DNA of 62,610 nt, counting the filler. It is 4 parts of 4 records of this genome, joined end to end, with 100 filler letters (N's around TTAATTAATTAA, not from the genome) between each part and the next. Parts side by side here need not be neighbours in the genome. Positions count along the whole stretch, not along the records: positions 16,980 to 33,894 come from SRR20825019_1547; 3 more parts are not named here. One strand, given 5' to 3'. The notes under the pieces were generated by a model, which saw only the letters and a list, made by a program, of their open reading frames with translations, searched no databases and was not told the DNA's origin. The position numbers were made by a program, and so were the translations under genes. Positions 11,554-39,258 of the stretch are shown here, piece by piece (the first letter of the stretch is position 1; each line of letters begins with the position of its first letter).

Positions 11554-11587
11554 ACCAAATCAAATCAAGCCACTCGTAAGACAGTGG

Positions 11588-16979: not shown

Positions 16980-17025
16980 AAAAAAAAAAAAAAAAAAAAA
17001 AACTCAAGAGCAGTCGCACCCTCAC

Positions 17026-18565: not shown

Positions 18566-19456
18566 TCACTTGATCAGAGCAAGGAAGATATAGGTGCCAT
18601 CAAAGGTCATCTCGTGACACATTGTCCACCACAAGTGCCTGCAGTCAAATAGCCCTCGGCTCACCATCACGCTCGGATACGAGTAAGAATTGCTTGACCA
18701 TGTCCCCACCACAGTCATTTCCTTCACGACTTGAAACTTGGGAAGTATATGTTTGGGAATGGAGACGCGTTGATCGTATTCCTTCAGCCGCATTGCACCA
18801 TTGTCCAGCATCAGTAGAGCGACGCCACCCGGTTTCAGCGCGGCGTGGATGTTGGTTATATAATCCCTGATTTCTTCTTCGGACATGTCAATCCAGCCCA
18901 GGACACCAAAGCTTGCCACCAAATCGTAGTACCCCAGCCGCTGGGGGTACTTGGAAATGATGTCTTGAGCGATGATCGGCATCACGTGGTCGTAAATGCC
19001 CTCACAATACTGGTGAATAAAGGGTTCATGCGGCTCCAGCAGTGACAGCTCCACGCTTGCTTTCGCTTCGGCCGTGGTGAGGCCCATCTTTTCCCTCAAG
19101 TTCCAGCCCAGACAGCCAATGTCTAGAACCCTCCAGGGTTCCTTCGGGGTGCCTGTCATGTGTCTACCTAGCACCTTCCACACGTGCAGCTTAACAACCT
19201 GACTAGAGTTTATGTCAGTATGGAGAGAATCTGGCGGCACATCAAAGACTTCCGCTAGGGCGGCTGCAAAGCGACTGCTCGGTGGGATCGGTGACGGCAT
19301 TGGGTATGACCTGGGAGGCCCTGGGAAGATAAATGCGTGGAACCGATACACGAAAACGAACATCAAAACAGCGGCCGCAACACCCATGTTCACTTGGCAA
19401 CCCCTGCGCGGGAGGCGCCGTGCAAACCGGCTTGGCGTAGCTGCGTGTGCAACCAT
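18566..19456 (-). CDS. Class I SAM-dependent methyltransferase with N-terminal transmembrane anchor
   Basis: Motif I VLDIGCLG, YYDLVASFGVLGW and ALKPGGVALL. TM segment GVAAAVLMFVFVY followed by a Pro-rich stem. Confidence 0.8.
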   Translation of the reverse strand: MVAHAATPSRFARRLPRRGCQVNMGVAAAVLMFVFVYRFHAFIFPGPPRSYPMPSPIPPSSRFAAALAEVFDVPPDSLHTDINSSQVVKLHVWKVLGRHMTGTPKEPWRVLDIGCLGWNLREKMGLTTAEAKASVELSLLEPHEPFIHQYCEGIYDHVMPIIAQDIISKYPQRLGYYDLVASFGVLGWIDMSEEEIRDYITNIHAALKPGGVALLMLDNGAMRLKEYDQRVSIPKHILPKFQVVKEMTVVGTWSSNSYSYPSVMVSRGLFDCRHLWWTMCHEMTFDGTYIFLALIK

Positions 19457-19504
19457 GGGATAATGAAAACGAAGGGGGCTACGTGCCTCTCATATCTATC
19501 TATC

Positions 19505-20130
19505 TTAGGCCGGCCCGGGCCGGCCCGGGCCCGGGCCCCAACCGGCGCGGCCGGGGAGCTGAGCGGCCCGCGCTGCCGCCCGGGGCCGGTGCCCGGCCGT
19601 GGACTGGCTGGCAGGCCGCGCCGTGACGGTGGCTCAGGACCCAGTTGGCTGTGCCCAGCATTGAGTGCCCGGGGCCGGGCCGCGACTGCGGGCCGGGCCG
19701 CCGCCCCCCCCGGCGGCCGGGGACTGTGAGTCCTGGGCCGCCTTGAACCGGCCGCTCGGGGGCTCACTCACCTGACCGCCACCCGGACGAAGGCCGAACT
19801 TGGAACCGACCGGACGACTCGGAACCCGACCGGACCACTCGACCCGCCGGCGGGTAGCTCCGTCACTTGAAGTTCGAGTGATCATTCCGGGTTCATTCGT
19901 CAACCGCTGAGTTCGCCGGTTGCGTTCGGCACTCGCCCCGTCCGGCGGCGGTCCGGACATACCGGATAGTACCGACTGTACCGATATGACTGATAGCTCA
20001 GTCATACGCGTACTACCGTACGGCCGCCAGCGCCAGCCGCCGGGCGACCCCTGCGGTCCCGTCCCGCCCCCGGAGAGCGCGGGCGCGACTCCCGACTGAC
20101 CTCGGCATCCGGGGGGCGGCAGGTGACCGG
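19505..20130. promoter_or_regulatory. GC-rich island between divergent genes
   Basis: Lies between 19456(-) and 20356(+), with gtgagtc, ctcactcac and gactcg words. Confidence 0.45.
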
Positions 20131-20355
20131 GACCCGAAATTCGAACCCCGCCTGTTCGAATGGCCTCCCATTTCGTTTGTACGGTGCTGGCCAGTCGGCC
20201 CGGTTCGGTTCCGTTCGTCATTGTTGCGAAGGTGACGGCAGGCCGTCGGCCTTCTTAGTTATATCGATACGGCCCCTCCCAGTCAAGCACCCTGACCCGG
20301 ACTGAAACCAGCCGGTGCCACGCCGGGCAGCCCATCGTCCCCGCCCGCACGCCTT

Positions 20356-22173
20356 ATGGCCTCTGAGGCCCCACCTGCGGGTTTGTTGGACTTGCCCCAC
20401 GATGTTCTACACGACTTGGTGTCACGCCTGGACGAGGCTGCCTTCCACTGCTTTGCCCAGACGTGCAGGTCCGCTTGGACTTTCGCGGTCGAAGTGACCG
20501 CGATTCGGCTGCGAAGGGCTGTTGAGGGGCAGCGAGGCCGGGTGGCCACGATGGAGGCCCGGTCTATTGAGGACCTTGATGAAGAGGCTGCCACTTCGAT
20601 GAGCCAGGCCCGTGCGAGATACGATGTGAGTATTTATATGCCGGCATTGTGCTCGATTCGTCCGGTTGTGGTGTGGCTGCTGTCAACATGATGTTACAGA
20701 TGCACAAATGGTTCGTGGACTTGCTGACAGTGTTCCTTAGGTCAGTCACGTGCTGGAGCTCAGGTCATTCGCTCATCCGCCCGTCGCTGTCAGCTATGCG
20801 CTAGAGGCGATGTTGGTTGCTTTCGGGGACAAATTGGATGGCAGCGCAAGAGCCGTCGTTATGAAACACTGCCGCGTCGAGGGGGGCTGCACCCCCATCT
20901 CTACCCATAGTACAAGGTATGATGCCATGATCAAGGGACCAGGCACTGGCAAGGGTGACACTGGCGGGGTTGAGTGTGGCTTGGTGATTACAGGATGGGG
21001 CCGCTCAGGTCGGGCACACGCGCGGGAGTTCCTGCAGTCCAGGGTGCCGGGGTTGGAAGACTGGAAGTGGCGACTGGTTTGGGAGGAGACATTCCGTGCG
21101 GTGGTGTGGTCTTAGGCGGTCGGCGGAAAGCTCACTGGATGCGGGCCGGGTTGAGCAAGGCAGGGTATTCATTGATGCATCTGACATCCAGCGCAGGAAA
21201 TGGTGCCCGGACACCCCTCCCCTCAGGGTCGCGATGGCAGTTCTTCTTGACAGCCCGCGGTGGCACATGGAGGCGATGGCCTCTATCAGGTGGGTGTGGA
21301 CGGGCCGTGCCTGTATGGGGCTGTGACTGGCGTGATGATGCGCCGTTCCGAGGATGTCCTCGGGCCGAGCCTCGAGGGCCGGGCGGGTGGGTTGGTGCCG
21401 GCACGTACTCAACTGCCGTTGTATGAGATCGGGTTGAATAATGAATGACCGAGCGCATCCGCAGACCAAGTGAGTTGTCCGGCGAACGTGCTGAGATACT
21501 TCTGGTAAGAACTAACGTGCCCACCGTGGCGACCACGATGGTCGACCGGCCTGGCCCAACTGACTCGGAGGCATGCCACACAGGGATACACCGATGGGCC
21601 ACACAGGTCGCTGATGGACCCGCACAAGACCGACAATTGCTCCATCTTCGTTGGTGCGATCGCGAGGTGGCTCCGTGCCCTTGCCGAGTACTCGCTGCCT
21701 GTCCAGCGAGTCAAGGTGAAGTCCTTTTCACCCCTCACCCCCGATGTCCTCTCGCACTCTCAAAATGTATAGATGTATCGGCCACCATATTCTTGTGATG
21801 TATCAATCACCACCCTGTGTATGTTGTGGATCTTATTCTTGGAAAGTTGGCGAGGCGTCTATGCGATGGGCTGATAGAGGGGTCGCAGCTTGACAAGATG
21901 CAGAAGGCACTGGAGAGGATGGAGGCTATCCAGGCCGAAGGCCCGCCACACATCGCCCGGCACGCCCTGTCCAGGGGCGTTATTCTTCCAACTCAACGCA
22001 CGTGCGAGGCCTTGGAGGCGCGGGCGGCAGAATATTGTACCGAGGGTAAGTGGGCCGTCATGATCAAATGTCGTATTCGATGTGTTGGACTGACATGGTA
22101 GTGTAACACAGTGAACCTGCTGGCGGAGCGGCTTGATTCCTTGTATGAAGCTATAGGAGGCTTTCATAGATAG
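20356..22173 (+). CDS. F-box-like protein with a dynein-stalk-like segment (multi-exon; internal exons uncertain)
   Basis: N-terminal LLDLPHDVLHDLVSRLD..FAQTCR fits the F-box pattern. After intron 20626-20740 the reading is VSHVLELRSFAHPPVAVSYALEAMLVAFG. The last exon ends at TAG 22171-22173. Confidence 0.55.
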
Positions 22174-22238
22174 CCATTCCGGCTGGCAGGGCGGTTTATT
22201 TTTCGATCTCGGGTACTAGGATATTGCTCCTATCACCA

Positions 22239-25200
22239 CTACTGTGCCAACGTGCCCGTGTCGGCGGCACTTTGATGAACCGGCTGGTAAGTGCCTGTGT
22301 TGGCTGCAGTTTGATGAACCGGCTGGTAAGTCGCCGTCTGGGGGTAGCCGCGCGGGACCTGTGGACCGTCGTTCAATGCAGCATAGCCTGCGTTGGAGCT
22401 GTATGGCAGTGCGGAGTTGCCGCCTTGCCCACCCGTATACATCATCCGTGGCTTGTTGTTGCCCCCGAGCTTGCAGTATGCGACGCAGCATATGACCATG
22501 ACAATGCACACAACGACTAAGAAGAACGCGGCACCAATCCCGACCGCTGAAAACCGAGTTAGTTGGTCGTGGCACTGATACTGTAAATACCCATTGATTA
22601 CTCACGTATCAACCAATCAGGCCATTTGAAGCCATCGTGATCGAATGGGCTCTTGTACGGGTATTTCTCGGCGGGGGGGTTGACCGGATCGTATTCCTTT
22701 ACCCAATGGTCAACCACAGTGGCCTCGGCACCCGCAGACACTCTCTGGGCCATCTTGTCCCCCTGCGCCACCAGATCGTCCGAGCACGAGGCGGCTGTGA
22801 GGCGTTTTCCATTGATTACAAGGGCAAACGACTGCTCATCATCAATAACCTTATTGCCCCTGACACCAACGATATAGGTGCCGGGCGTCGCATTGGGAAT
22901 GACGATCTTTTCAACATTGTTCAGGTTATCGAAAGAGCGCTGATAGAGTTGCAACACTGAAAGTCAGAAATCCGGGCATTTGCCATCGAGGGCACGAACA
23001 CCACCTCCATACCTGATTATTTCCGGCCCAGATATCTGTGGCATCCTTCTTGGTCATCCACAAGTCCAGGTCGTTCACAAGGGCCTTGGACGCGCTGGCA
23101 TATGCTGGCTTATCTGTGTACACAAGCGACACTCTCAGGGGTGTCTCCTGGGCCACCGTGAAACAGCGATGGAAGGAGGAGCCGTCACTGACCGACGGGT
23201 CTGCATAGGTCGCCTTGGCCGAATGATCCGCGGCGAGGAGGAGTGATGTCGCTTCATCGCCGTCTCGTTCGGGGAGCGGGATGGCCTGGTCGAGTTGGGG
23301 ACGGCCGTGACCCTCGTAGTTGTTTGGCATGACTTGATGGTGAAGGGTGGTTGTACTGTCGGCGATTTTGCCGCGGAGGGGCACAGCAGCGTTAATCACA
23401 ATCGCCTTGACCAGGGCGGCGCTGGGCTTCAATGGAATCTTCTCGGCGGCACCCACCGGGAACGAGCCGCTCTCAAAGTACTGGCGGATGACCGCGGTCA
23501 TTCCAGCGACAAGGGGGGTGGCCATTGATGTCCCGCTCATCTCGGTCAAGACATTGTTATAGGCACCCTTCTCCGGCTCGCCGCATGCTTGGGCAGTAAC
23601 GCCAGTGCCACCCTTACCCTTGACAGACACAATGAATTGACCGGGGGCAACCACATCGGGTTTGATACGAGAGTCACTTGCGGGGCCCCGTGACGAAAAG
23701 TCCGCCAGATTCTCCAGGTTGTACTCGGTGTACTTGCTCCGAATCTTTGCTATTTCCTCCTGGCAGCACAGGCCAGCAACCGAAGGCTTCAGAGACGGAT
23801 ACAAGATGCATAAGAAACTGCGCGAGCCCTTGCAAAACTTGTCTGGGCAACACTCGTCATTACTCTTCAACTCGTAACCCGAACCATCAAGAGCATCGTT
23901 AAGCATCTTGCGATTACTGTCCAGGTCCACGTAGTACACTGAGTTCCTGGCCCCCCAGACGGTATTGACGGATGCGCCCACAGTGAGGGCATTCTTGGCC
24001 TGCAAAGGTAAAGACAGGCGGGTAAGAACGATACACAACTGAGACAACCCGGGCATCTGGGCATACCTGTGCCTCAGTTCCAACGGTGCGCGACCCGTCT
24101 GTGCCACTATTTCCCGCGGCGAAGAGAACGAGGAAGTCCGGATGTTTGTGCACAAATTCGTCGATCTCCAAAGACTGCATCATGATCACATGGCGAGTGA
24201 GATCGCGGTAACGCATGGAGAATGACGAAGGGCACTTACATGACTGCTGTAATAATTCTTATAAGATCCTCCCCAGCTGTGAACGAGAGAATAGTCAGTC
24301 GGTGCAATACCAGTGCGGGCTTGACTCACCTGTTGCTGTGGATGCGGGCGCCGTTCTGATAGGCAAAGGGAAACAAATGGGTGCCCAGATCGTCTGGCAC
24401 GTACACAGCCGCGTCGCTCTTTTCACAACGGCCTGAGCATATGAAGGGCATGTAGTCGGGATCCTCAGTAACACAGCCTCCCGACGTCTGGCAGCCCACA
24501 TCAGTAAAGAGAAGCTTTGAGCCTGGAGCCATCCCCTTGAACGTCGCGAGATAGGCCCCTTTGTCGCCGGCCTTGCCCGCATCCACATTGCCGAGGACGC
24601 TTCCGCAAACATGGGTGCCGTGGCCGCCTAAGTAGTCATACTGATCCATATGCGCCCAGTATCCTTGGATCTTGCGGTGCCCGGATGCTGCCAGCTGCTT
24701 GGGCGACCGCACCACCTGCACGTGCTCCTCATCGTAGAACGCACATCGCTGGTAGTCGACACCGCTGTCCGCAACGGCGACCGTCACGTCGGAGCCATCG
24801 AATCCACCATCAAGGAAGGGCTCCTTCATATCGTCTCCGTACGCTTCGCCCATCTGAAGCGTGACGCGGGCATACCTGTTGTTCACCTGCTTAGGGAACA
24901 TTCGCTCAACACCGACCACGGAGGGGATCGCCGCGACCGCATTGACGACACGGTCGAGGTCACTCCGCTCTACGGCCACCGCAACCTTGCCTCCGCGGAT
25001 TGAGGCGGCACGGCTCACTCCTTGCATTGCCCGGATGGCCGTTGTTCCAACGTCAGCCAGTTGCGCGTTCGGGAACATGACATAGAGGCTAATGACGGGA
25101 GAAAGGTCCAATCCTTTCTTTTCCCCAAGCAACTTCAACGCCACTCTTTCGATGGGGGTGTTGGCCGCGCGGACCGCATTCTCGTGCTCGGCCTCCTGGG

Positions 25201-25668
25201 CACTGATACTGGCGGAACGATACTTCTTCCGGTCAGGTGTCACGATGGTGACAAACGTGACGGCATCCCTGGCCTTGGCCGCCAGGGCGACGGACTCTGA
25301 GCAGTACACGAGGGCGGTGTCCTCTGTGAGAAAGATAGTCGTGAGAACCCAATCACAAGGCAAGAGAAGGGCGGGAGTGGACCAGGACTGGCACAGGACT
25401 TACCGGGAACATATCCAACCAAGACGAACCCAAGCTCCGCCGCCAGTGCGCTAACGGCGGCCTCGGAGTACTTGGCAAACTGTATGAGGTACAGGGCGTC
25501 CCGTTGAACAGCCCCCGACGCCGCGTAGGCGAACTCAGGAGAAACAGACTCCGCACTGGAGCGAGGGTTTATCGGCTCGGATGAATCGCCAAAGTGGATA
25601 AGGCGAGGCTCGGAAGTCGATGCCACCGCCAGTGCAGCCAGCAACAGGAGCAAGAGGCACCGCATCAT
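22239..25668 (-). CDS. Membrane-anchored subtilisin-like serine protease (S8, KP-43/TagA-like), multi-exon
   Basis: Signal peptide MMRCLLLLLL. Catalytic motifs VAVADSGVD, GGHGTHVCGS, FAAGNSG and SGTSMATP, plus FSSRGP..RIKPDVVAPG, LVNDLDL and NNVEKI. C-terminal TM PVGIGAAFFLVVVCIVMVICC. Confidence 0.93.
22271..22331. repeat. 39-bp-period coding tandem duplication in the subtilase cytoplasmic tail
   Basis: tttgatgaaccggctggtaagt occurs twice, encoding TYQPVHQ(T/S)AA(N/D)TG twice on the minus strand. Confidence 0.8.
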
Positions 25669-26570
25669 TGCCAGTTACCGTGCTTAAATGCGCCGGACCA
25701 GTGATATATCTACAACACTTGGTAGGTCTCGGTCAGTGGACCGGTCCATACTCCGGGATGGAGCGCGGCAGCATGTGGTGCGCTTGGACCTGTGGCGGCC
25801 GGGCACGCCCGTGGGCAGTAGTTCTGTGCTCTCAAGACTGACATGCCAAGCCGCCCGAGCAGCCGCGGCTTTGCTCCAGTACCCACACTGGCGGTGTTCC
25901 AATAGGGCACCGATTGGCTGACACCCGGATTAACTAACACCCACCAGCCGCCGCCGTGCAGCTCAGGTGGAGCCCGGCCAGACCGCGGAGATTGGACTTG
26001 TTCGTGCTCTCACGTCAGTACTGTGATGAGTACCCCTCAGTGAATGCCATGATCCTGACATCCTGGGGCATCTCCCGCAGTGTTCCAAGCCGGGGGCACC
26101 GATTCAGCTCTATTATTAGTACCGCAATCAGTTTTCAGTCCTCGGACCTCGAAATAACGAAACGATGCTCGTGTAACGAAATGCGTATGTTGAGTCGCCC
26201 ACGGGATCCCCGCCGCCGGGGGCGCCCGCGGGCCGCATCCCGGAAGCGGTCAGCGTGGGGAGGAGTTGCTCGGACTGACGCGCCTCACACTCGGCGTCGG
26301 TCTCCCGGGAGGTCAGGGGCGACCTTACCGTTCCGCGCGCCCACGGCCCCAACCAGGCCGTTCAGGCCAGACCCACCCGCCACCTTGGCCTGCTCGCGGT
26401 CAGGCCGTTCACCCCCGGTCACCGGAAGGCGCCCTTGGGCCCGGTGGTGCTAGGTGCAGCAGACCAGAGCCTAGGGACCAGCCAGGCCGAGCTCACTCTA
26501 CAACTCGTCGGTTCTATTGGAGGCGAGAATATTTGTATCGCTTAGTGGAGTACAGGAGAGCCTTGAGGCA

Positions 26571-29500
26571 ATGAAGTTGCAGGCTTGCGTACTGCTGGCC
26601 CTTGCCCTCGCGGCCGTCATGGCCTCAGACGCTCTAGACCGGGACGCCTCGCGTTCCTCCGGCGACCGGGAGGAGAAGGACCGGTCGGACCTTATCACCA
26701 GTGACGATTCCGGCGCCGACGACGTGAAGGACGAGTGGCCCAGCCGGGAGGACAAGGAATGGTCGGACCTTATCACCAGTGATGATCCCGACGCGAACGA
26801 CGTGAATGAACGGTTTATGGAGGATGCTTATGACAAGCTGGTGGAGGAGTGCGACGAATCCCTCGCTACACTTCATGACCGCAGCGCCTTTGGTCTCGTC
26901 AGGTTCAAAACCATTGCCGGCCAGGCGGAGACCAGGCAGATGTCAGGGAAGATCGGCGGGTTCTTCGAGCAGCACAGTGAGGCTGCTGTCTTTGGACACC
27001 ACTGTGACGCAGAGTTGCCGCCTCAGCTGACCATGTTTAAGAGTAGCGTGTGGCCCAACAGCTGCAGCGGCGTCGTTCACGAAAAAAATATCAAAATCGA
27101 AGAAATGCCGAGGAGCCGTCACCGCCAGCCGTTTTTTGATCGCGTGCTTATCATATCAGATCATGTAGCCAATCCGATCAAGAGCGTGATGGAGCTGGAG
27201 TTCCTGTTCAAAGCATCCGGGTATGAGTATCGTGCTTACCAGGATGGGTCCATCGAAGGGGAGCGGCGGCCCAATCAAAAACGTTTCTCGTGGCCAGAGC
27301 GTTGCGCTCGGAACACTGAGGGGTCGAACACTCAGAGGACCATGAACCGCTCATTCAGTGTCATCGTGGACGTTGAGCCCGTAGAAATCCTTAAGAATAT
27401 ATACATGCTCAACGCGATTGTGGAAGCGGACCACATCATTGTCGTTCAGGTGTGTCCATGTGTATCTATCTGTGTGGCGGCCTAACCCCTGACTGGTGAT
27501 GCAACAGAGCACCGACTTTGATCTTGCCAACGTGGTGGCTGGTGTCACCAATAAGCCCGTGGTCACCTATGCGACATCGGAGGGCAGCTGGGTGTCCGAG
27601 GGTGGCCGTGCCGGACTCAACGCCATGCTGGACTACTGCAACGCAGGTACAGTGCGATATTGCGCCCTACGATCTATAGTCCCTGACGTCCTGACTCTGT
27701 GCGCGCGTGTGCAGGCGTCGCTGTTGTCAATATCGACAGCTCCATTGGCGCATGGTCATGGGCGGTGGCCGCAGCCAATTTCCGCCGTAATGCTGTGCTT
27801 ACCAGCCAATTGTGTGTTCAGAGTGGCGATACGTGCCAATGCGGTGCCAGAGTCAGCCCGGTTCTGGACAGGAGAGGCGGGGCGTTGATGGAGAGAGAGC
27901 ACAAGGCCTTCACCAAGCTGGAAAGGAAGATTACACACTACAGGAAGCAAGCTGCCGCCGCACTGAATAAGAAGATCGCCCAGTGGGAGGAGGAAAAACG
28001 CGCCTCGGCGACTGAGGAGGGCAAAGATGAGATCAACCAAAGGATTGCGGCGGCTGAGGGTCTTCTCGAGAGCGGAGAAAAGCCCGCGGTGCAGGCGAAG
28101 CGCGATAATATCTTGAGACTGGAAGGGAAGATCAGTCAATTGAGGAGGGAAGCATCCGCCGCGTTCGAGGAAGGCGATGGGAATGTGGATGACGATTTGA
28201 TCGCGGAACTTGAGGACGAGCTGAATCAAATCAAGGAGAGGCTGAATACGGCGAAAACCTGCACAGATCGTGCTGCGATGGAGAACTTCAGGAAGGACAC
28301 CGCCAAGTTTGCAGCCGGCATCTGCAGAGTCCAAACAGCTATGGACCGTGAGTTTATGGCGCGCTACATGGGGTAAGCAGCTGTACTGGTGGTGCTTGTC
28401 GGACCGTTCTAACCTGGAACACAGCCGGGACCCTGTCGTCAACTTGAAAGCGCATACCGATACCTACGCTAGACGCATTGCCACATTATTGAAGAACCGC
28501 CTGCTGCAGGCATCCGGATTCACTCCCGACGGGATTCCGAGGCCCGGGGTCTCTTTTATGACCAGTGCTTTCGGAAAAACAAACGTTCAGCTTGCGAACG
28601 CCATGCGGGAGAATGATTACTCTCCAAATATTGGAGCTGAACAGGCCAGCGAAGTGCTTTCGTGTTACTATTCTAAGTGTTTCGATAACAATGGAAAGCG
28701 GGAGGTCATGACATGCTCCAACGATCAAGTTCAGAAGGAGAAGGCGGAGGCTAAGAGAGCGAGGGACTACCGAAAGAATGAGCGAATGATCCGGGATATG
28801 CTGGACACCTGCCCGGAACATTTCATGGGCGGCGAAATTGCTGACGAAAGTCGCATTTCGACCTTCGTTGCTAATGCTCTCGGGCCACCGCCCGCCCCTT
28901 ATGAAGACCAATGCCCCACTATGATTCACACCCCGATCATGTACGATCCCGTAGCAAAGCTGCTCTACCGCCGTGATGTGACAAATGACGTGGATCTGGG
29001 GAAGAACTCGGGCTACTTCAGCGGGCGCGCTTGCGTGGTGAGCGCGGGCATTGCGGACCAGGGTGTGGTGCGTGCGATGATCAAGATTTTCAACCTGAAT
29101 GGAGTGTCAGTGGACATCGAAGAGGACCTTGGGGTCAACTCCATCGCCAAGGACACCCTTAGGGTGATGCGTCTCCAGTCGGAGTGTGACCTTTTCATTG
29201 CCACAGCAGGGATGGAAGGGACGTTGCCTGAGGTGGTGGCGCAGATTGCCAGGGGTGCGCCGGTCATCTCGGTCCCATCCAACGTAGGTTACGGTGCTCA
29301 CCAGGAAGGCATGGCCACGCTTGGCGCGATGTCCACATATCCCACCCCTGGCATGGTCGTGACCAATATCGACGCTGCCACCTCTGCTGTCACCGTCGCT
29401 CTTTCCTTGATGAATACTCATTACTTCAAGCGCGATCGGTATTTCGAGACTGAGCGGGAGAAGAACATGGATGAGCGGTCCTGTGACCTGTGCACACTGA

Positions 29501-29742
29501 TGAAGCCAGAGAACTTTGCCGGTAATGGGAATGAGTTTGAAGAGGCGTGCTTCTCTGTGCACGGGTGTGCAGTCTGCCCTGGCGATAACTTCAAGGGCAA
29601 GCCGAAGTGCGTATCAATAGAGCGTGTCCAGACGGACAGGTATCAGAACTGCATGTATGGACAACCGGATAACATCTTCGCGCAATCCGCCGGATCTGGT
29701 GCTACGACCACGCTCAAGAACCTGCTTGGGAAGAATCAGTAA
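26571..29742 (+). CDS. Secreted protein with two LarB (AIR-carboxylase/PurE-fold) domains, a central coiled coil and a Cys-rich tail
   Basis: Exons 26571-27449, 27508-27646, 27715-28372 and 28425-29742 splice in frame. Signal peptide MKLQACVLLALALAAVMA. Domain 2: FGKTNVQL, YDPVAKLL, GRACVVSAGIAD, EDLGV, IATAGMEGTLPEVVA, PVISVPSNVGYG, VVTNID. Domain 1: RVLIISD, ADHIIVVQSTDFDLANVVAGVTNKPVV, GGRAGLNAMLDYCNAGVAVVNID. Confidence 0.85.
26666..26810 (+). repeat. 78-bp (26-aa) coding tandem repeat after the signal peptide
   Basis: Units start at 26666 and 26744 (ccgggagga.aagga..ggtcggaccttatcaccagtga.gat), encoding REEKDRSDLITSDD and REDKEWSDLITSDD. Confidence 0.85.
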
Positions 29743-29889
29743 AGTTTTGAGACCGAACGTAGCGAATCATGTTGATCTCATCAGTGCCTTGGGTCCCCAG
29801 TCAGTTTTCGTCTGGTCTGCGGTAGTACCAAATGTGATGAGCAATCGCATTCAGTAATCTCTCTATAGCGAACGCCGTTTACAGAGTAT

Positions 29890-30390
29890 GGGCTGCCCGG
29901 CATGGCCCGGCTCAGGCGCCCGGCCGGGTGGCCCGGGCGGCGCCGAGGGCGTAGGGCCGCCGGCCCAGCGGAACTGAGCTGGAAGCAACTCAACTAGTAG
30001 AGTAGGGTGGCTCGCGAGTCCGGGCTGGGACTCGTCGCTCACGCCCGCGGCGGCTGTCAGCCGGGGTCGAACCACCTTGGGGAGTAAATTCTTTTTTGGG
30101 TTACGGGTCAGTCTCCACTGAGACCCGGACGACGGGCCGCCGGGGAAGGTTTACGCCGGGCGGGCCGGGCGCCGGCCCGCACCAGACCGAGTGAGGCTCC
30201 TGCGGCCGCCGGCTCTCAGGTCCGGCGAGGCCCGACCTGGCTGGTCAGTGCGGGCGGTGAGTCGGGCCGGCCGCCGGGGCTGCGCGCCGCCGCCGGGCCG
30301 CCGCACTGGGGGACCGGACTCTTTTGGCTCGCGCCCGGCCCGTGTGAGGTGCCCGTAGGACGGACTGCCTCCAGTCCTGAGCAGGCGGGG
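29890..30390. promoter_or_regulatory. GC-rich island upstream of the 30495 gene
   Basis: Same composition and words (cgagtc, gactcg, gtgagtcg), followed by an AT-richer tataa segment near 30410. Confidence 0.45.
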
Positions 30391-30494
30391 CAGTGACTTT
30401 ATGACTACAAATATAAAGGACCGTCACCATACTCATGTGGTGCAGAGGCTTGGCAGGACCACCACAATAGTTCAGCTGTAGAGGCTGGGAAGCG

Positions 30495-33316
30495 ATGACG
30501 ATCCAGCGCATCACCGTGCTGCTACTGGCCCTGGCGGCCATGTGCTTTGCTGCTGTAGCCGCCACCACGTCAGAAGGAGGCCAGTGGGGGAAGACCAGGG
30601 GCAAGGTTGCGCCCCCCAAGTTTGGAGTGTGCAACCTTGCGGCCTCGGGGCCGAACGAGGGAATGTCGTCTCTTGAACAACAGACTCGTTCAGAGTACCC
30701 CGTCGTGTTTGTCGCGGGGGACTGGACGATAGCAATGGACGGGCTTCAGTTGCAGCATGTAAGTACGGGAGCTGTCAGGCGGGCTGAACACTAACGCCAT
30801 GCTGGCTGCTTAGGCCGACCTTGACCTCGGCTATCGCGTTCGCGACGGCCGCCTGCAGGTGTACGTACGGAGCGCTCAGAGCATACGGGCGGACCCGTGG
30901 CGTCACCATGCCTGTAAGGAGATGACCCCGGCACACCTGCGGCTCTACATTGAAAGGTGACGTCGCAGCCAGACGGAGTCTTGTTGGAACTAACCAGCCG
31001 ACGCAGGCTTTATGTCCATGAGAATCGTAAGAACGCACGGCCAGCGGGGCTGACAGAGGCTTTCATTGCCAAGGCGAAGAACTCGGTGAGCGGACTGTCG
31101 CCATGAGGGGCTGGCTCGATCCGAATAGCAGCTGACACGCGCTGGAATAGATCCTTCCCAACCCCTTGATACTACGCGGGGTGTCAATGCAGGTGGACAT
31201 GGGAATATCTGCCGATGGCTATGACATGAAGGAGACTCATGGGGAGAACCCGCTCTTCCGACTCACCGACCTACCCGAGGATAACCCCCAGAATCAGTAC
31301 AGTTTCTGCTTCCAAAAGCTCAAGTGGAAGATGATGTCGGGTCCGTTCTCACGGCTGACAACCAAGCTGGAAAAATACCTCAGCGTGCTGGAAGGGGTGC
31401 TGCGAGGCGTGCTGGGTAATGCGATCAAGTGCTGGCTGAGCCAGGGGCAGCCCGGCGGACTGGAGCTGTTCCTAGGTGACGCGCGCAGGGCCGTTACGGC
31501 GATAGACAAGGTGCATCTATTGTGTGCACGAGGGGGGGTGGAGTGCGTGTTTTAGTGTTGAACTGACTTGTCTCGCTGCAGCTCAAGCAATGCCAAGCTC
31601 TTACCGAGTCGAGTACACCCCGTACGGTGCAGCTGCAGCATTGCATTGAACTGCTGGACCGGGAAGGGTTCCGGGTTCCTAGCGCACTCCGGAAGGTGGA
31701 GCCCGGCATGTCTATGGGGCAGCTGAATGACCTGGGGAGCCACATACGGGATGTCATCGCCGCAATGGGCACCGATGAGAACACCACAAAGTTCTCCCTT
31801 CAGTTCAAGTTGCAGCCCGAGCGTGCGTTGGAGGATCTGACGAGTGGGATGTTGCCAAATGTGAGCGGCGTCCATCCGTCGTTTTCACTTTTGGTTATCG
31901 TGCTGATCATTCGTTCCTGTAGATATCGGTGGAAAAGAGCATTGGTGTCAACCTCAATTCCAAGACTTTGCTCCGAAGTATAGTGTCATCCGCGGAGGTG
32001 AGATATCGAGCAGGATCAACGCCGTCGTTGCTAATATTGGTTCTGCAGTCGGCAAACGCGTTCCTGGCCATGACGGATGATTCATTATCACTGAACGCCG
32101 CGTTCCTTCGCACTCTCGTGTCCAATTGGATGCTAAAGAATGGCGTGGAGGGCTACGATCTAGCCGCGGTGATGTCTATAATTTCAGAAGCATATATCAC
32201 CAAACTGTTCGAGGTACGACATGGTGTGTGCCGGCAGCACAGGCATTGACTTTCGGTCCTAGTCCAAGCTTCTCGCAAATGGAGTCACAGCAAAGATAGA
32301 GCGGACTGATTCGGAGGAAAACAGTGTTGCGGAGCTATTTGTGGATCACTTTGAGGGCCGCCTGGACAGCCGGAACAACCCCGTCAATGTCCCACTGAGG
32401 CTCTTCCTGAAGCACGGGCAATGTGCAGTGAGCATGGCGACGCTGGTGCGGCTGTGCAGGGATGACGAGGCATGCATTCGACGCAGAGTGCGGAAGAATC
32501 CGGGTGTGTTCTCGATGACGGCCGCACAGGTGATGGAATACCTAGAGGGAAGCGAGGTACAAGCCAAGGGGCTGTCGATGGTGGGCGTGTACGAGTATAT
32601 GATCAGGTACGCTATGCCTTGAGGTTGAGAGCGATGCATTGTGCCTGACGGCGGCTTGTACAGGTCGATGTTGACACCAGACTTGTGGAGTGATATAGCG
32701 GAGTCCTTGTGTTCCCAACAGAACTGCCACGTCTTAATGGATATGGTGGACGAGTTCATGCGGTGAGTAGCAAGTGTCGTGAAGGCCCTTGGCGGGAGTG
32801 CGTGTTGATGTGTGATTTGCAGGGAGGCGCCATTCCTGGCATCACTCTCATTGCCCCGGGGCCCAGGGCGTGGGCTCCGATTTGACAAGGATCGATTCGT
32901 CTTGGAGACAGCCGCCCAGTACAAGGGCCGACTGAGTAAGCACAGCGTGCGTGTTCGAACTGATAACGATGCTAATAACAAGATCAGATCTTGGGAAGGT
33001 GCTGGGGCTCGCTGTGAATGCCGGGTCATACCTCATGAAGATTGCCGAAGAGAAAAATTACGACGCGGCATCGTGGATGGCTGTGGTGGACCATCTGTTC
33101 TCGATAGATGATCTGTCGTCGTGGACTTCGTCCTCATATGATGGGTCGGAGTGGTACGAAAGTAGCGAGAGTGGCGACGACAGCGACGGGGAGGTCTACG
33201 CCTCGCCACAGGGCCGCGAGCCTAATGGGTACGACGACGTGGATAACGAAAGCATCCCCGACGAGTATGGTGGTCTTGATACCCACCCGCTTGAAGATCA
33301 CCCTGGGCGCCTGTAG
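30495..33316 (+). CDS. Secreted protein of unknown function with acidic C-terminus (multi-exon)
   Basis: Signal peptide MTIQRITVLLLALAAMCFAAVAA. Successive + strand exons separated by GT-AG introns. Ser/Asp/Glu-rich tail ending at TAG 33314-33316. Confidence 0.62.
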
Positions 33317-33894
33317 ACTCCCTTTCTAGAACTTTAAAGCATGCCCCATCATATAGATAAACTCAGTGACTCTGCTTCAATGTTTATAATGCGGCAGCAA
33401 GATGAATTCACTGCCCATGGTATAATCGCGGCTTGTTCACGACACACATCCGGAAAGCATTTTCTGCTCGAGCTCCGAGTCAAAAATGCAATCAAAAGGC
33501 AATGAAAATAAAACTGCAAAATAAAATGAAAATGAAAGTCGAAAGGGAAACGGAAATGACGAGAGGGATCGCGGCTACTTCATCCTCAACTTTGCAGTGT
33601 GGCGTCCGGTACCTGTGCTATCACTCATGGCCAGAGCTATGTGCGCATCCCATAAGGCGCGCAACCTCGGCCTTCAAGGCTGCGCATTCCTTCTGCACAA
33701 CACCAAAACCACACTATCAGGACACAGTGCCATATATATGATTAAGCGATTCAGCAACGCGACCATACCTTGTGGCTCTTCCAGTGGCACGTACTCGTCG
33801 AGTACTTTGATTTTACCCCCCCTTGAGTGATTCTATCTGGCCAGTGATCACATTTCTCCATTGGGTTGAGTTGACTGGATGACTCTTGAAGACC

Positions 33895-33994
33895 NNNNNN
33901 NNNNNNNNNNNNNNNNNNNNNNNNNNNNNNNNNNNNNNTTAATTAATTAANNNNNNNNNNNNNNNNNNNNNNNNNNNNNNNNNNNNNNNNNNNN
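33895..33994. other. Artificial contig-joining spacer
   Basis: 44 N + TTAATTAATTAA + 44 N. Confidence 0.98.
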
Positions 33995-34354
33995 TGCCAC
34001 TGCCTGTTCCAGTTCTATGTCGCGGACGGCAAGCTCTCCTGTCAGCTCTATCAGCGCAGCGCGGATATCTTTCTTGGTGTGCCGTTCAATATCGCGTCTT
34101 ACGCATTGCTGACTCTGATGGTTGCTCAGGTCACAGGCCTGGAGCCCGGAGATTTCGTGCATTCCTTCGGGGACACCCATCTCTACCGCAACCATTTCGA
34201 TCAGGCCCGCGAGCAGTTACAGCGTGTGCCTGGGCACCTGCCCACTATGCGTATCAACCCGGAGGTCACCGATCTGTTTGCGTTCCGCTATGACGATTTC
34301 GAGCTCGTTGGCTATGAGGCCGCCCCGCATATCGCCGCGCCGGTCGCGGTCTAG
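33995..34354 (+). CDS. thyA: Thymidylate synthase, 5'-truncated
   Basis: [49 protein letters not shown]. No introns. Confidence 0.97.
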
Positions 34355-34356
34355 AG

Positions 34357-34887
34357 ATGGGCATGGACGATAAGATTGTGCAGTTTCCGGTGCCGGTCAT
34401 CGTTGTTGCGATGTCCGATAACGGAGTGATCGGAGACGGCGAGAAGATGCCCTGGCATCTGCCCGCCGATCTTAAGCGGATGAAGCGCATCACCATGGGC
34501 AAACCGCTGGTGATGGGGCGCAAGACGTATCAGTCAATTGGCAGAGCCTTACCCGGCCGGACCAATATCGTGGTGACCAGGGATCGGGGTTTCAAAGCCG
34601 AGGGTATTGAGATTGTGCATAATCTTGACGAGGGGCTGGACCTTGCCCGTCGCGTGGCGCTGACGGATGGCGTTGACGAGATTATCGTCTTCGGCGGTGC
34701 CGAGATCTATCGCCAGGCCTTCGACAAGGTACAGCGCCTGCATGTGACGGAAATCCATGTCGACGCCGAGGGACAGACCCGGTTCCCCGATTTTGATCGC
34801 ACCGAGTGGCACGAGACGGACCGGGAGAATCATCCGGCAGATGGAGACGCGCCCGCGCATAGTTTCGTCACGCTGGAGCGGAGCTGA
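34357..34887 (+). CDS. folA: Dihydrofolate reductase
   Basis: NGVIG..MPWHLPADLK, VMGRKTYQSIGRALPGRTNIV, FGGAEIY. Lies directly after thyA. Confidence 0.96.
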   Translation: MGMDDKIVQFPVPVIVVAMSDNGVIGDGEKMPWHLPADLKRMKRITMGKPLVMGRKTYQSIGRALPGRTNIVVTRDRGFKAEGIEIVHNLDEGLDLARRVALTDGVDEIIVFGGAEIYRQAFDKVQRLHVTEIHVDAEGQTRFPDFDRTEWHETDRENHPADGDAPAHSFVTLERS

Positions 34888-34890
34888 GAA

Positions 34891-35409
34891 ATGAAGAACG
34901 GGACGGTAAGCCTGCGCGCCATGGACCCGGGCGACGCGGAGCAGGTGCTGGCGATCTATCAGGCCGGGATCGATACCGGTCACGCGACTTTCGAGGTGCA
35001 GGCACCTAGCTGGCCCGCGTTTGATGCGAAATATCTGCCCGACTGCCGACTGGTCGCGCTTGCCGATGATGCTGTGGCGGGCTGGGTCGGCCTGACGCCG
35101 GTCTCGAGCCGCGTGGTTTATCGCGGGGTGGCTGAGCACAGCATCTATATCGCGCCCGAAGCGCGCGGCATGGGCGTCGGCCGGACGTTGCTCGCAGCGC
35201 TCATCGAGCAGTCCGAGCAGGCCGGATTCTGGACCCTGCAGACAAGTATCTTCCCGGAAAACGAAGCCAGCATCCGCTTGCATGCCGATCACGGCTTCAG
35301 GGTAATCGGCACGCGGGAACGGATTGCGAAAATGACCTATGGCCCGATGGAAGGGCAATGGCGCGACACCACCATCATGGAGCGGCGCAGCGCCATTGCC
35401 GGTCTCTAG
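34891..35409 (+). CDS. GNAT N-acetyltransferase, Pat/YncA/ArsN1-like
   Basis: IYQAGIDTGHATFE, VSSRVVYRGVAEHSIYI, ARGMGVGRTLL, IFPENEASIRLH..GF, WRDT..MERRS. Confidence 0.9.
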   Translation: MKNGTVSLRAMDPGDAEQVLAIYQAGIDTGHATFEVQAPSWPAFDAKYLPDCRLVALADDAVAGWVGLTPVSSRVVYRGVAEHSIYIAPEARGMGVGRTLLAALIEQSEQAGFWTLQTSIFPENEASIRLHADHGFRVIGTRERIAKMTYGPMEGQWRDTTIMERRSAIAGL

Positions 35410-35417
35410 GCGGGGTA

Positions 35418-36575
35418 TTAATTGAAGACGATATTCGGAGCTGCCCGGCTCCCCGTTTCGCCGCTACCGACTTTGCTCCAGACCTTGTCCGCAATGCCTT
35501 TATAGGCAACCGAATGCGGGCTGTCCGGGGCCGAAACCACGATCGGGTTCCCGGCGTCCGAGGTCTCCCGAATATCCATATGCAGCGGCACTTCGCCAAG
35601 GAAGTCGACGCCGATCCGCTCGGCCTCGTCCCGGGCACCGCCATGACCGAAGATATCCGAACGCTCGCCACAGCTCGGGCAGAGGAAATAGCTCATGTTC
35701 TCGATGATGCCGAGTACGGGCACGTCGACCTTGCGGAACATGTTGAGGCCCTTGCGGGCGTCCAGCAGGGCGATGTCCTGCGGCGTGGAGACGATGACGG
35801 CACCGGCCAGCGGCACGCGCTGTGACATGGTGAGCTGGGCGTCGCCCGTGCCCGGCGGCATGTCGACGACGAGCACGTCGAGCTCGCCCCAGAGCACGTC
35901 GCGCAGCATCTGTTCCAGAGCGCTCATCACCATCGGGCCGCGCCAGATGGTCGGGCTGTCCTCAGGCACCAGGAAGCCGATGGACATGCATTTGATGCCG
36001 AACCGCTCCAGCGGCTTCAGGGTCTTGCCGTCTTCCGTTGTCGGACGGCCGGAAATACCCATCATGCGGGGCAGGGACGGGCCATAGATATCCGCATCGA
36101 GAATGCCGACGGTGAGGCCGGAGGCCTTCAGCGCGAGGGCGAGGTTAATGGCGGTGGTGGATTTGCCGACGCCGCCTTTGCCGGAGGCAACGGCAATGAT
36201 CGACTTGATGCCGGGGACCAGGGTTTTTTGTGTGTTCTGTGCCGGGCGCGCTTGCGGACCACCCGTGGCGGCTTGTGTCCGGGGCTGTGCGGGCTGTGCC
36301 TGGCCGCTCCCGCCCTGGCCGCCGGGGCGGTGTGCGGTGAGTACGGCCGTGACCGAGAGAACACCCGGTAATGCGTCCACGGCTTTCTCCGCCGCCTGGC
36401 GCAGCGGCTCAAGCTGCGGGCCGCGTTTCGGGTCGACCTCGATGGCGAAGCCGACATTGCCGTCTTTCACGACAAGACCGCTCACCATGCCGAGAGAAAC
36501 GATATCCTGCCCCTTGTCAGGGTCTTCCACAACCTTGAGAGCTGCCAGGATTTGATCTTCGGTTACCCGTGCCAT
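35418..36575 (-). CDS. mrp: Mrp/ApbC (NBP35 family) Fe-S cluster carrier ATPase
   Basis: N-terminal DP..DIVSLGMV domain, ASGKGGVGKST, DADIYGPS, WRGPMV, DMPPGTGD, ENMS..CPSC. GGAG RBS upstream of ATG 36575. Confidence 0.95.
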   Translation of the reverse strand: MARVTEDQILAALKVVEDPDKGQDIVSLGMVSGLVVKDGNVGFAIEVDPKRGPQLEPLRQAAEKAVDALPGVLSVTAVLTAHRPGGQGGSGQAQPAQPRTQAATGGPQARPAQNTQKTLVPGIKSIIAVASGKGGVGKSTTAINLALALKASGLTVGILDADIYGPSLPRMMGISGRPTTEDGKTLKPLERFGIKCMSIGFLVPEDSPTIWRGPMVMSALEQMLRDVLWGELDVLVVDMPPGTGDAQLTMSQRVPLAGAVIVSTPQDIALLDARKGLNMFRKVDVPVLGIIENMSYFLCPSCGERSDIFGHGGARDEAERIGVDFLGEVPLHMDIRETSDAGNPIVVSAPDSPHSVAYKGIADKVWSKVGSGETGSRAAPNIVFN

Positions 36576-36716
36576 GCTTGATTTCTCCGGCTTTTGGCCA
36601 ATATGCGAATTCAACGTAATGTTTCGCGCAAGCAGATATACGCTTCCCCTATTCCTTTGCAACAGGGGGGGCATCTGCTAAGAGCGACGAGCGCTTTATG
36701 ATGAGGGGAAACATAT

Positions 36717-37883
36717 ATGCCTTGGAGTAATCAAGGTGGCGGCGGCGGTCCATGGGGCGGCGGCGGTGGTAACGGGTCTGGCGGCGGCGGTGGCGGTAAG
36801 TCTCCGTGGGGTGGCCGGGGACCAAGCGGCGGCGGTCAGCAACCGCCTGATATTGACGAGGTTATCCGCCAGGGACAGGCACGCCTGAAGCGTTTGCTGC
36901 CAAGCGGCATGGGCGGACCTACGGGCATCACGCTGATCGTTATAGGCCTTCTTGCTCTCTGGCTGTTTTCCGGCCTCTATCGGGTACAGCCGAACCAGCA
37001 GGGTATCGAACTTGTTTTTGGCCGTTTCACCGGTGTTCCGACCGAACCTGGCCTGCATTGGAATTATCCATCTCCGATCGGCTCGGTGATCAAGCCCGAT
37101 GTGACCCGGGAAAACAGGGTCGAAGTCGGTTATCGCAGTTCCGGGGACGGCTCGGGCCGGAGTTCGGTGACGCGCGACGTTCCCGAAGAGAGCCAGATGA
37201 TCACCGGCGATGAAAATATCGTCGATATCGATTTCGTCGTGTTCTGGCGGATCGCTGATGCCGGTGACTTCCTGTTCAATCTTCAGGATCCCGCCGAAAC
37301 CGTGAAAATGGCGGCGGAATCAGCGATGCGTGATGCCATCGGCAAACGACCGATCCAGGTTGCCCTGACCGAAGGCCGTCAGCTCATTGAAAGCACTGTG
37401 CAGGAAGATCTGCAGAGTTTGCTGACCGAATACGGTGCCGGTGTTTCCGTTCGGCAGGTTCAGTTGCTGGCGGTGGATCCGCCGAAGCAGGTGATCGATG
37501 CCTTCAACGAAGTGCAGCGTGCGCGCCAGGATAAAGACCGGCTGAAGAACGAAGCCGAGACTTTCCGGAATGACGTGGTGCCACGTGCCCGTGGTGAGGC
37601 GGCGCAGATGATTGAAGAGGCGGATGCTTTCCGTCAGGAAGTCATCAACCGCGCCATTGGTGACGCGGATCGTTTCGAGTCCGTCTACAAGGCCTATTCG
37701 GCCGCCAAGGAAGTCACCCAGAAGCGTATTTATCTGGAGACCATGGAAGAGGTCCTCGGAAACGTGAACAAGATCATCATCGACAGTGCGGACGGTGGCT
37801 CCGGTGTGGTGCCTTATCTGCCTTTGCCTGAAGTGCAGAAACAGATGCAGAAGAACCGCTCGACCTCGGGAGGCACGCAATGA
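36717..37883 (+). CDS. hflK: FtsH protease modulator HflK
   Basis: MPWSNQGGG Gly-rich N-terminus, PPDIDE, TM segment, SPFH motifs MITGDENIVD, VIDAF, RIYLETME. Confidence 0.96.
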   Translation: MPWSNQGGGGGPWGGGGGNGSGGGGGGKSPWGGRGPSGGGQQPPDIDEVIRQGQARLKRLLPSGMGGPTGITLIVIGLLALWLFSGLYRVQPNQQGIELVFGRFTGVPTEPGLHWNYPSPIGSVIKPDVTRENRVEVGYRSSGDGSGRSSVTRDVPEESQMITGDENIVDIDFVVFWRIADAGDFLFNLQDPAETVKMAAESAMRDAIGKRPIQVALTEGRQLIESTVQEDLQSLLTEYGAGVSVRQVQLLAVDPPKQVIDAFNEVQRARQDKDRLKNEAETFRNDVVPRARGEAAQMIEEADAFRQEVINRAIGDADRFESVYKAYSAAKEVTQKRIYLETMEEVLGNVNKIIIDSADGGSGVVPYLPLPEVQKQMQKNRSTSGGTQ

Positions 37884-38755: not shown

Positions 38756-38794
38756 CGGGGCCGATGCGGCTCGGAAACAGACGAGGGCGGTGCC

Positions 38795-38983
38795 GTGACG
38801 GATTTCCTGACGGCGCTTGCCCTCGTTTTTTTTATCGAGGGCTGTCTTTACGCACTGATGCCGGGCCGAATGAAGGCAATGATGCGGGCGGCGCTCGAAC
38901 TGGATGAGAGCGTGCTAAGGCGCGCGGGCTTTATCGCCATGGTTCTTGGATTCGCGCTGGCCTGGATTTTGCGCGCCGCCTGA
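38795..38983 (+). CDS. DUF2065 (YjeT-like) small membrane protein
   Basis: DFLTALALVFFIEG..LMP..LRRAG, in the usual position after hflC. Confidence 0.88.
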   Translation: MTDFLTALALVFFIEGCLYALMPGRMKAMMRAALELDESVLRRAGFIAMVLGFALAWILRAA

Positions 38984-39258
38984 GGCGCTTATGCCCTTCG
39001 ACGCGGCCGGAACCAGAAAATGCCGCAATTCAGACACAGTTGCTCGATCAGCACCACATTGCCGCCACACCTTATCGTTATATCTGACATTATCGAGGGG
39101 CCGCGTTGAAAGCCGTTCGATCGTCCCTACCTTGATGGCTTATAGATGGGGCGAAAAGACTCACCTCTGTCGACGGGCCACCGGTCCGCCGCTTCCGGGC
39201 CGGGATAGGGTCCCGATACCCGAAAAGGATAAAAGCTTTGCCAAGGAGCGTTGAAATC

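Follow-up and report, generated by a model that had tools for sequence, protein, structure and literature searches.

What becomes of LarB, a cytosolic homo-oligomeric enzyme that catalyzes the first step of nickel-pincer cofactor synthesis, when a eukaryotic gene appears to double it and to place it behind a signal peptide? The question is raised by a gene at 26571–29742 on the plus strand of a 62,610-base stretch of DNA (hereafter, the window), which an initial annotation, made from the letters alone, described as encoding a secreted protein with two LarB-like domains. We know of no LarB chemistry in the secretory pathway. In this study, we found that the gene is real and spliced, is expressed as one transcript and comes from a unicellular eukaryote, and that its product of 997 amino acids (aa) is a heterotypic two-domain LarB/PurE form with a predicted export signal. 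Since it falls below the equivalog cut-off of the LarB model and has no module with the full residue set, the protein is not filed as LarB. Judged from its sequence, it belongs to a kind of two-domain LarB protein with complementary halves. We consider it possible, with a rough probability of 0.4, that these halves come together, outside the cytosol, to form a single composite site that accepts a pyridine dinucleotide.

Results

Domain 2, a complete and pocket-keeping LarB module

Domain 2 (aa 593–895; 28525–29433), with its core at aa 753–895 (from nt 29005), keeps pocket motifs of LarB. The initial annotation had placed this domain at about 28540–29410, equivalent to aa 598–888. It matched Pfam AIRC (PF00731) above the cut-off (33.9 bits against 30, E = 2.8e-8, profile positions 4–144 of 148) and the NCBIfam LarB equivalog model NF033503 with 88.5 bits (E = 4.8e-25, model positions 79–207 of 209). 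The TIGR01162 purE model gave 24 bits against its cut-off of 150. In a PDB search, the best solved relative was LarB of L. plantarum (E = 9.4e-10). The AlphaFold2 (AF2) model, built on a 61-row alignment, had a predicted local distance difference test (pLDDT) score above 90 in the core, and Foldseek, queried with this model, returned LarB entries first (top match 7mj1_E, E = 7.8e-10, template modeling score 0.65 on the target). A word search for long relatives of exon 4 found none among 5858 candidates.

VIA-align superposed domain 2 on six LarB entries with Z-scores of 20.1–20.6 over 185–193 residues; at Z = 20.6, the root-mean-square deviation was 2.7–2.8 Å over 185–187 residues. Exon-4 residues from 30/43 to 331/335 were placed on LarB chain residues from 36/49 to 246/248; since the aligned range reaches, for example, from 34–331 on 41–246, the LarB-specific N-terminal part is included in domain 2. 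The GKT..Q and Y.P.A.LL (here YDP.A.LL) elements that the initial annotation had pointed out in this domain lie inside the aligned part, and hmmalign also placed the second of them there. PurE entries aligned to the core only.

Residue numbers refer to L. plantarum LarB by way of the PDB alignment, in which AGTSDQ contains Ser127, AGMEG contains Glu180 and NSCASG contains Cys221. Domain 2 keeps the AG..D, D.GV, AGMEG, GYG and NID motifs, and E823 is the equivalent of Glu180. Alanine stands at the places of Ser127 (A769) and Glu134, proline (P865) stands at the place of Cys221, and there is no glutamate at column 147 of the hidden Markov model (HMM; hereafter Glu147). Cys221 of LarB reportedly forms a transient cysteinyl–pyridine adduct. 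As far as the account in PMC13524815 goes, an S127A variant of LarB favors the carboxylated product over plain hydrolysis. Alanine also occupies the Ser127 column in 43 of the 183 LarB segments, from 165 proteins, that we compared, and 159 of these segments have the cysteine.

Domain 1, a partial module that keeps the cysteine

Domain 1 (aa 190–365; 27138–27791), which the initial annotation had placed at about 27138–27780, runs across introns 1 and 2, and its verified part is aa 250–362 (from nt 27318). This part scored 61.2 bits against a custom HMM of 112 single-domain LarBs, and exon 2 alone matched the NCBIfam LarB model (E = 5e-6, 26.4 bits, model positions 146–185). With these matches and those of domain 2, the initial assignment to the LarB/PurE fold was borne out for both domains. 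BLASTP within a set of eight sequences aligned domain 1 with P0122 at 34% identity over 118 aa (E = 7.5e-11). P0122 (223 aa) is itself a single-domain LarB homologue with aspartate at the cysteine place. The exons of domain 1, scanned singly, gave no Pfam match, and an AF2 model of exon 1 made without an alignment was unusable (pLDDT 34). MAFFT aligned RVLIISDHVAN with the P-loop strand and opened an insert of about 43 residues after it; RVLIISDHVAN is plausibly the P-loop strand of domain 1.

The verified part has QSTDF in place of AGMEG and GSW in place of GYG; Cys337 stands at the Cys221 place, and the MLxxCxxG..VVNID stretch is kept. Domain 1 thus retains Cys337 with the surrounding strand and helix and has lost the pocket motifs. 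Its branch in a quick tree is very long, at 3.4 changes per column. The two LarB-like domains of the initial annotation therefore fared differently: domain 2 is complete, and domain 1 is LarB-like only over about 113 residues, its first half giving an hhalign probability of 2.5% when exon 1 was compared with the LarB alignment.

A complementary split of conserved residues

The split was quantified with columns kept in at least 80% of the 112 single-domain LarBs, of which 98% have Cys at the cysteine column and 99% have Glu at column 147. Single-domain LarBs keep medians of 30 of the 32 pocket columns and 16 of the 17 columns of the cysteine loop. Domain 1 keeps 9/32 pocket columns against 14/17 cysteine-loop columns (Fisher p = 0.0007), and domain 2 keeps 21/32 and 10/17, respectively. 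The cysteine and a full pocket occur together in neither module. What had been read as a doubled LarB is thus doubled indeed, and the copies are not equivalent, each being without residues that the other keeps. Since neither module is a canonical LarB, the initial suggestion of repurposing is a fair one.

The same division recurs among the two-domain relatives. An exhaustive search of representatives with exon 4 gave 1425 proteins at E <= 0.001, and 13 of the best 150 of these matched in two stretches. The AT-rich proteins P0012, P0013, P0014, P0018 and P0055 each join a first core that has AGME and (Y/F)G, but neither the cysteine nor Glu147, to a second core that keeps both of these residues and has a decayed pocket. 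P0016, P0023, P0030 and the cluster members P0160–P0165 have likewise lost Cys and Glu147 from their first cores. P0011 (628 aa) has the cysteine half first and the pocket half second, which is the order of the LarB-like gene. Tabulation of 15 halves of two-domain proteins, with P0021 set apart, gave the cysteine in 0/8 and Glu147 in 1/8 pocket-keeping halves; by HMM alignment, both residues were present in all 7 pocket-poor halves. P0021 (383 aa), whose halves are sisters (99/99), is a separate, recent LarB duplication.

Two-domain LarB proteins are also carried by giant viruses. The best viral structural match of domain 2 was the AIR carboxylase of Catovirus CTV1 (A0A1V0S9M6, 490 aa; E = 1.2e-8); proteins of this type are labeled “AIR carboxylase” or “NCAIR mutase (PurE)-related”. 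An IMG/VR scan with an alignment of eight AT-rich proteins detected two loci, L001 on a giant virus metagenome-assembled genome (GVMAG) contig and L002 on a 1.15 Mb contig, which encode two-domain proteins of 490–548 aa with the pocket half first (L001 7917–9563; L002 7986–9458). The same scan with P0055 alone found no relative. Neither LarC, LarE nor LarA was found within about 8 kb of L001 or L002. An open reading frame (ORF) of the CinA-like family, which includes nicotinamide mononucleotide deamidase, lies at 2–829 of L001, 7 kb from the LarB locus, and L002 has a dynamin-family gene at 15054–16991. In metagenomes, a first scan found no relative among 48 pattern matches, and a second found one locus with 38% identity. 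The doubling, which the initial annotation had taken for part of an undescribed architecture, is therefore not peculiar to this gene, as the two-stretch matches and the giant-virus loci demonstrate; the export signal, acidic repeat, linker and Cys-rich tail were seen in this gene only.

The closest relative of domain 2 is P0001, a 242-aa fragment of a marine eukaryote transcript with 48% identity. P0001 has the same LarB core, the same set of pocket motifs and, where the cysteine would stand, the same proline. Beyond the core come a stretch that contains Cys, a membrane helix (Kyte–Doolittle 2.26) and a basic tail. No comparable hydrophobic segment was found in ten other two-domain proteins checked.

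In a careful tree, domain 2 and P0001 are sisters (100/99), viral pocket halves form one clade and viral cysteine halves another (100/99 each), and the cysteine half of P0011 joins the viral cysteine halves (86/90). Quick trees placed domain 2 and P0001 with the viral pocket halves (Shimodaira–Hasegawa-like approximate likelihood ratio test, SH-aLRT, 87) and all 14 other halves in one set (98). The careful tree did not recover the link between domain 2 and the viral pocket halves and placed domain 1 nowhere; a grouping of domain 1 with the cysteine halves was not rejected on 35 rows (approximately unbiased test, p-AU 0.83) and appeared in 0% of the bootstrap trees of the careful run. The split may have been inherited or may have arisen more than once.

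Gene structure and transcript

Reading frames and splice signals gave a gene of four exons with three GT..AG introns of 58, 68 and 52 nt. Exon 1 (26571–27449; aa 1–293) encodes the signal peptide, the acidic repeat, an unassigned region and the first part of domain 1. Exon 2 (27508–27646; aa 294–339) carries QSTDF and the conserved Cys337 (27637–27639). Exon 3 (27715–28372) completes domain 1 (VAVVNID...) and continues into a charged helical linker, and exon 4 (28425–29742) holds the whole of domain 2, the Cys-rich tail and the stop codon.

Contigs from two public runs of one sample and one study, X1 (3043 nt) and X2 (3034 nt), span 26565–29757 and exactly skip introns 1 (27450–27507), 2 (27647–27714) and 3 (28373–28424). 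The run type is not on record; adaptor-like letters, which we take to be the 3' part of the SMART template-switch oligo, a cDNA adaptor, directly precede 26565 in contigs of both runs, and the contigs were therefore taken as cDNA. On this basis, the mRNA begins at 26565, 6 nt before the first ATG (26571), and ends at 29754–29757, 12–15 nt past the stop codon. The eukaryotic four-exon, three-intron model was thus confirmed almost to the base.

These contigs also bear on whether the two domains might come from two genes, or from a misassembled or contaminating sequence. The window is a concatenation of four contigs, one of them bacterial, and this would favor such an artefact. Against it, the gene lies wholly within the second piece (16980–33894), one cDNA-type contig from each run spans all four exons without introns, and LarB homology runs in frame across introns 1 and 2. 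We regard an artefact as very improbable, and the doubt that the initial annotation had raised, namely that transcripts might reveal two separate genes, is settled, as far as contigs of one sample reach, in favor of one transcript. Its other doubt, that a different start might remove the signal peptide, is answered by the position of the mRNA start, which leaves no upstream start able to do so; the peptide itself is a prediction. The spliced subtilase gene upstream has a leader of 8 nt, which makes the very short leader of the LarB-like mRNA believable.

Comparison of the genome with the cDNA contigs revealed 16 listed differences in the coding sequence (26598–29664), 13 of which are non-synonymous; by record counts there are at least 17. 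None of the 16 lies in the cores (aa 250–362 and 753–895; binomial p = 0.009), and the non-synonymous ones cluster in the signal peptide, acidic region, linker and tail. The differences may be strain or allele differences, or errors. Their pattern fits constraint on the LarB cores and fast change elsewhere.

Predicted export and the regions outside the LarB modules

The sole strongly hydrophobic stretch of the protein is aa 1–23 (Kyte–Doolittle 19-mer mean 1.93). By a hydropathy heuristic, aa 1–18 (MKLQACVLLALALAAVMA; 26571–26624), beginning at the first ATG of the mRNA, form a predicted signal peptide, with K2 first, a hydrophobic core at aa 3–18 and V-M-A, small at –3/–1, before S19. Inspection of the mature chain found no second hydrophobic segment and no end resembling an endoplasmic reticulum retention signal; the chain has 24 cysteines, an even count. 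An extracytosolic location is supported by the predicted signal peptide, the even number of cysteines and the membrane-anchored relative P0001.

The acidic tandem repeat (26666–26809), also noted in the initial annotation, consists of two 66-nt copies (26666–26731 and 26744–26809), 86% alike, in a 78-nt register, and the surrounding region has 30 Asp and Glu in 81 residues (aa 20–100). No match was found for aa 100–189. The charged helical linker (aa ~395–559; 27879–28372; 32 Asp and Glu, 31 Lys and Arg) gave only weak coiled-coil-like Pfam matches. The tail (aa 896–997; 29434–29739) is Cys-rich, as first described, with seven cysteines and two CxxC motifs; it matched no Pfam family and had an AF2 pLDDT below 50. 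No relatives of exon 1 were found at E <= 0.01 among 2348 candidates of 161–513 aa, and a protein atlas held no usable match for exon 4 or for exon 1 residues 95–293. We take the acidic repeat, the helical linker and the tail to be probable lineage-specific additions.

The N-terminal hydrophobic stretch might instead direct a classical LarB to an organelle. Lar genes and an active LarA homologue occur in unicellular eukaryotes, according to the portion of PMC11770544 that deals with them, and PMC5592239 includes a LarB-type “NCAIR mutase” in oomycetes, stramenopiles, dinoflagellates and green algae. In addition, a composite site could in principle be complete. Several observations oppose this explanation, which we find improbable: domain 2 reaches 88.5 bits against the equivalog cut-off of 175; the acidic region is unlike transit peptides as we know them; and in P0001 the LarB domain lies on the opposite side of the membrane helix from the basic tail. 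A plastid transit peptide in particular was rejected because the stretch that follows the hydrophobic segment is strongly acidic.

Make-up of the window and neighboring genes

The window consists of four contigs (1–16879, 16980–33894, 33995–39852 and 39953–62610) joined at 16880–16979, 33895–33994 and 39853–39952 by linkers in which TTAATTAATTAA, with stops in all frames, is flanked on either side by 44 N. Linkage between the pieces can therefore not be assumed. No Lar family was found among 160 scanned translations of the 178 stop-to-stop ORFs of at least 110 aa in the window, the remainder being mostly frames that overlap the LarB-like gene or the bacterial block. The initial annotation had counted the absence of larA, larC and larE as evidence; because the window comprises four unlinked contigs, one of them from a Nisaea-like bacterium, this absence carries no weight.

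The bacterial piece (33995–39852) is collinear with Nisaea denitrificans over 5883 bases at 87.9% nucleotide identity, and its HflK has 94% protein identity to that of this species. It carries a truncated thyA, folA, a GNAT gene, mrp/apbC, hflK, hflC and a truncated trypsin-like protease gene. Horizontal transfer of this block was rejected because linkers bound it at both ends; most likely, its source is a marine alphaproteobacterium from the same culture that entered the assembly.

On the second piece, the subtilase gene (22546–25676, minus strand) is the divergent neighbor of the LarB-like gene, and the two mRNA starts lie head to head about 890 bases apart. Its ATG lies 8 nt inside the cDNA 5' end (25668–25676, with the adaptor at 25676), and its product starts with a classical signal peptide, MMRCLLLLLLAALAVAS, followed by a propeptide-like start. 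A possible target of this subtilase would be the acidic region near the N terminus of the LarB-like protein. Gene style on this piece is very compact, with leaders of 6 and 8 nt, a short 3' end and small introns; introns across the piece measure 52 to 280 nt. The other eukaryote-like pieces (1–16879 and 39953–62610) carry exons for an ARMT1-like protein (1746–2120), a C2H2 zinc finger (39905–40288), an M14 carboxypeptidase with a propeptide (43941–45367), a member of the tubulin-tyrosine ligase family (47440–48416, minus strand), a DUF4472 protein (57219–57548) and an HlyIII/PAQR protein (60465–62402, minus strand).

Discussion

A composite site as the proposed function

We propose that the LarB-like chain is exported into the secretory pathway by means of its predicted signal peptide, and that its two modules would pack together like neighboring protomers of a LarB/PurE ring. 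Domain 1 would lend its cysteine loop to the pocket of domain 2, so that each chain would have one composite site and one dead site. The composite site would bind, and probably turn over, a nicotinic-acid or nicotinamide dinucleotide by LarB-like chemistry, namely addition of the cysteine to the pyridinium ring followed by carboxylation, hydrolysis of the phosphoanhydride, or both. This reaction would take place in a lumen or extracellularly and would be separate from the classical synthesis of the nickel-pincer cofactor.

LarB is a homo-octamer. If its cysteine loop reaches the pocket of a neighboring protomer, a pocket half and a cysteine half amount to one whole site, and such a site would explain why the decayed half keeps exactly this cysteine. 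The recurrence of the split, whether by descent or by repeated origin, speaks for a mutual dependence of the two kinds of half. Sites assembled from several chains are usual for this fold; in PurE, the sister fold, three protomers meet at the active site, as summarized in PMC10484210.

Pairing of the halves was examined at the level of the family with P0011 rather than with the protein of the window itself, whose domain 1 is split by introns. Segments 185–345 and 470–628 of P0011 scored 0.75, and the best of three controls scored 0.02; among solved complexes, 51 of 78 attain this mark, and among mismatched pairs, 2 of 108 do. The runs had at least 91% of their contacts in common, with a partner pLDDT of at least 75, and the predicted interface involves the strand and helix beside the cysteine loop and includes Cys310 of the cysteine-keeping half. 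This result speaks for likeness rather than for binding, and it may reflect the predictor's memory of solved LarB octamers.

Points that weigh against a composite site

Several observations count against the composite site. At 88.5 bits, domain 2 is well short of the score that would make it a LarB equivalog, and the first half of domain 1 is not detectably LarB-like. The match of domain 1 to Glu147 varies with the alignment used. In P0021, one half has Glu147 without the cysteine and the other has the cysteine without Glu147. The predicted pairing surface is where the conserved residues of domain 1 lie, and the domain may have been retained solely as a structural partner. Thirteen protein-changing differences out of 16 are a sign of fast change outside the cores. 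Nicotinic acid adenine dinucleotide (NaAD) is, to our knowledge, not known in secretory compartments. Finally, the trees leave it undecided whether this protein and the viral ones inherited the split from a common source.

Some of these points favor a different function, in which the protein is exported, both modules are catalytically dead, and the whole has a role in ligand binding, adhesion or structure within the secretory system, at the cell surface or in an extrusome or matrix, with domain 1 retained solely for the folding and pairing of domain 2. Domain 2 without the cysteine and domain 1 without the pocket would be expected from such a protein, as would the very long branch of domain 1 and the conservation of its predicted pairing surface. 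An acidic repeat, a long helical linker and a Cys-rich tail are typical of structural secreted proteins; the excess of non-synonymous differences and the failure to find exon 1 relatives point in the same direction. Structure alone, however, hardly explains why the cysteine is present in 7/7 pocket-poor and 0/8 pocket-keeping halves. Moreover, domain 2 retains AG..D, D.GV, AGMEG, GYG and NID, P0001 holds the same set at 48% identity, and none of the listed differences falls in the cores. We regard this non-catalytic binder as the main, though doubtful, alternative. Between enzyme and binding protein, a choice that the initial annotation had left open, neither is clearly favored, the composite site being slightly the more probable.

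A more specific version of the composite site is a single-chain, obligately heteromeric LarB with halves that are dead alone, which would process NaAD or its phosphate (NAADP) outside the cytosol and have cytosolic sisters in giant viruses. NAADP is a calcium messenger. We consider this version unlikely as a whole.

Comparison with known LarB and PurE proteins

Domain 2 shares with L. plantarum LarB the fold, including the N-terminal part (Z = 20.6, 26% identity over 185–187 residues). LarB makes P2CMN and AMP from NaAD and CO2 and acts together with LarE and LarC. It has one module, measures about 250 aa and carries no signal peptide, whereas the present protein joins two unequal modules in a 997-aa chain with predicted export. 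Class I PurE (N5-CAIR mutase; 1QCZ, 2YWX) has the same Rossmann-like core, with Z-scores of 18–19.6 over about 130 residues, but acts on another substrate with other catalytic residues and is without the LarB N-terminal part.

The giant-virus type of two-domain protein (Catovirus CTV1 A0A1V0S9M6; P0012–P0055 and P0164; L001 and L002) displays the same complementary split. These proteins differ from the LarB-like protein in having the pocket half first, in being AT-rich and in being without a signal peptide, acidic repeat, long linker or Cys-rich tail. P0011 has the same order of halves, but it has no signal peptide and both of its halves are less decayed. P0001, as a fragment, closes with a membrane helix where the LarB-like protein has a soluble tail.

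Single-domain LarB-type genes of eukaryotes likewise place the LarB family in nuclear genomes, as PMC5592239 describes; its account of them, as far as it extends, reports no doubling, split residues or export signal. An active LarA homologue in Phytophthora is among the findings given in PMC11770544. Cyanobacterial CpmA is a further LarB-family protein for comparison and is of the single-domain type. Our literature search found no doubled, split-site, secreted or viral LarB, most subscription journals being outside its coverage.

Implications

Unequal halves with complementary residues constitute a natural experiment on the parts of the LarB site that are contributed across protomers. One lineage routes a LarB pair to the secretory pathway, as its predicted signal peptide suggests, and pairs of this kind are also found in giant viruses. 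If the heteromeric form that acts on NaAD or NAADP is real, it would be the first extracytosolic pyridinium carboxylase/hydrolase, and giant viruses would carry cytosolic sister forms, perhaps reshaping the NAD metabolism of their hosts. If the composite site is active, it would widen extracytosolic pyridine nucleotide chemistry and the nickel-pincer field would gain a new class; if it is dead, the protein would be a clear-cut example of a secreted scaffold derived from an enzyme fold.

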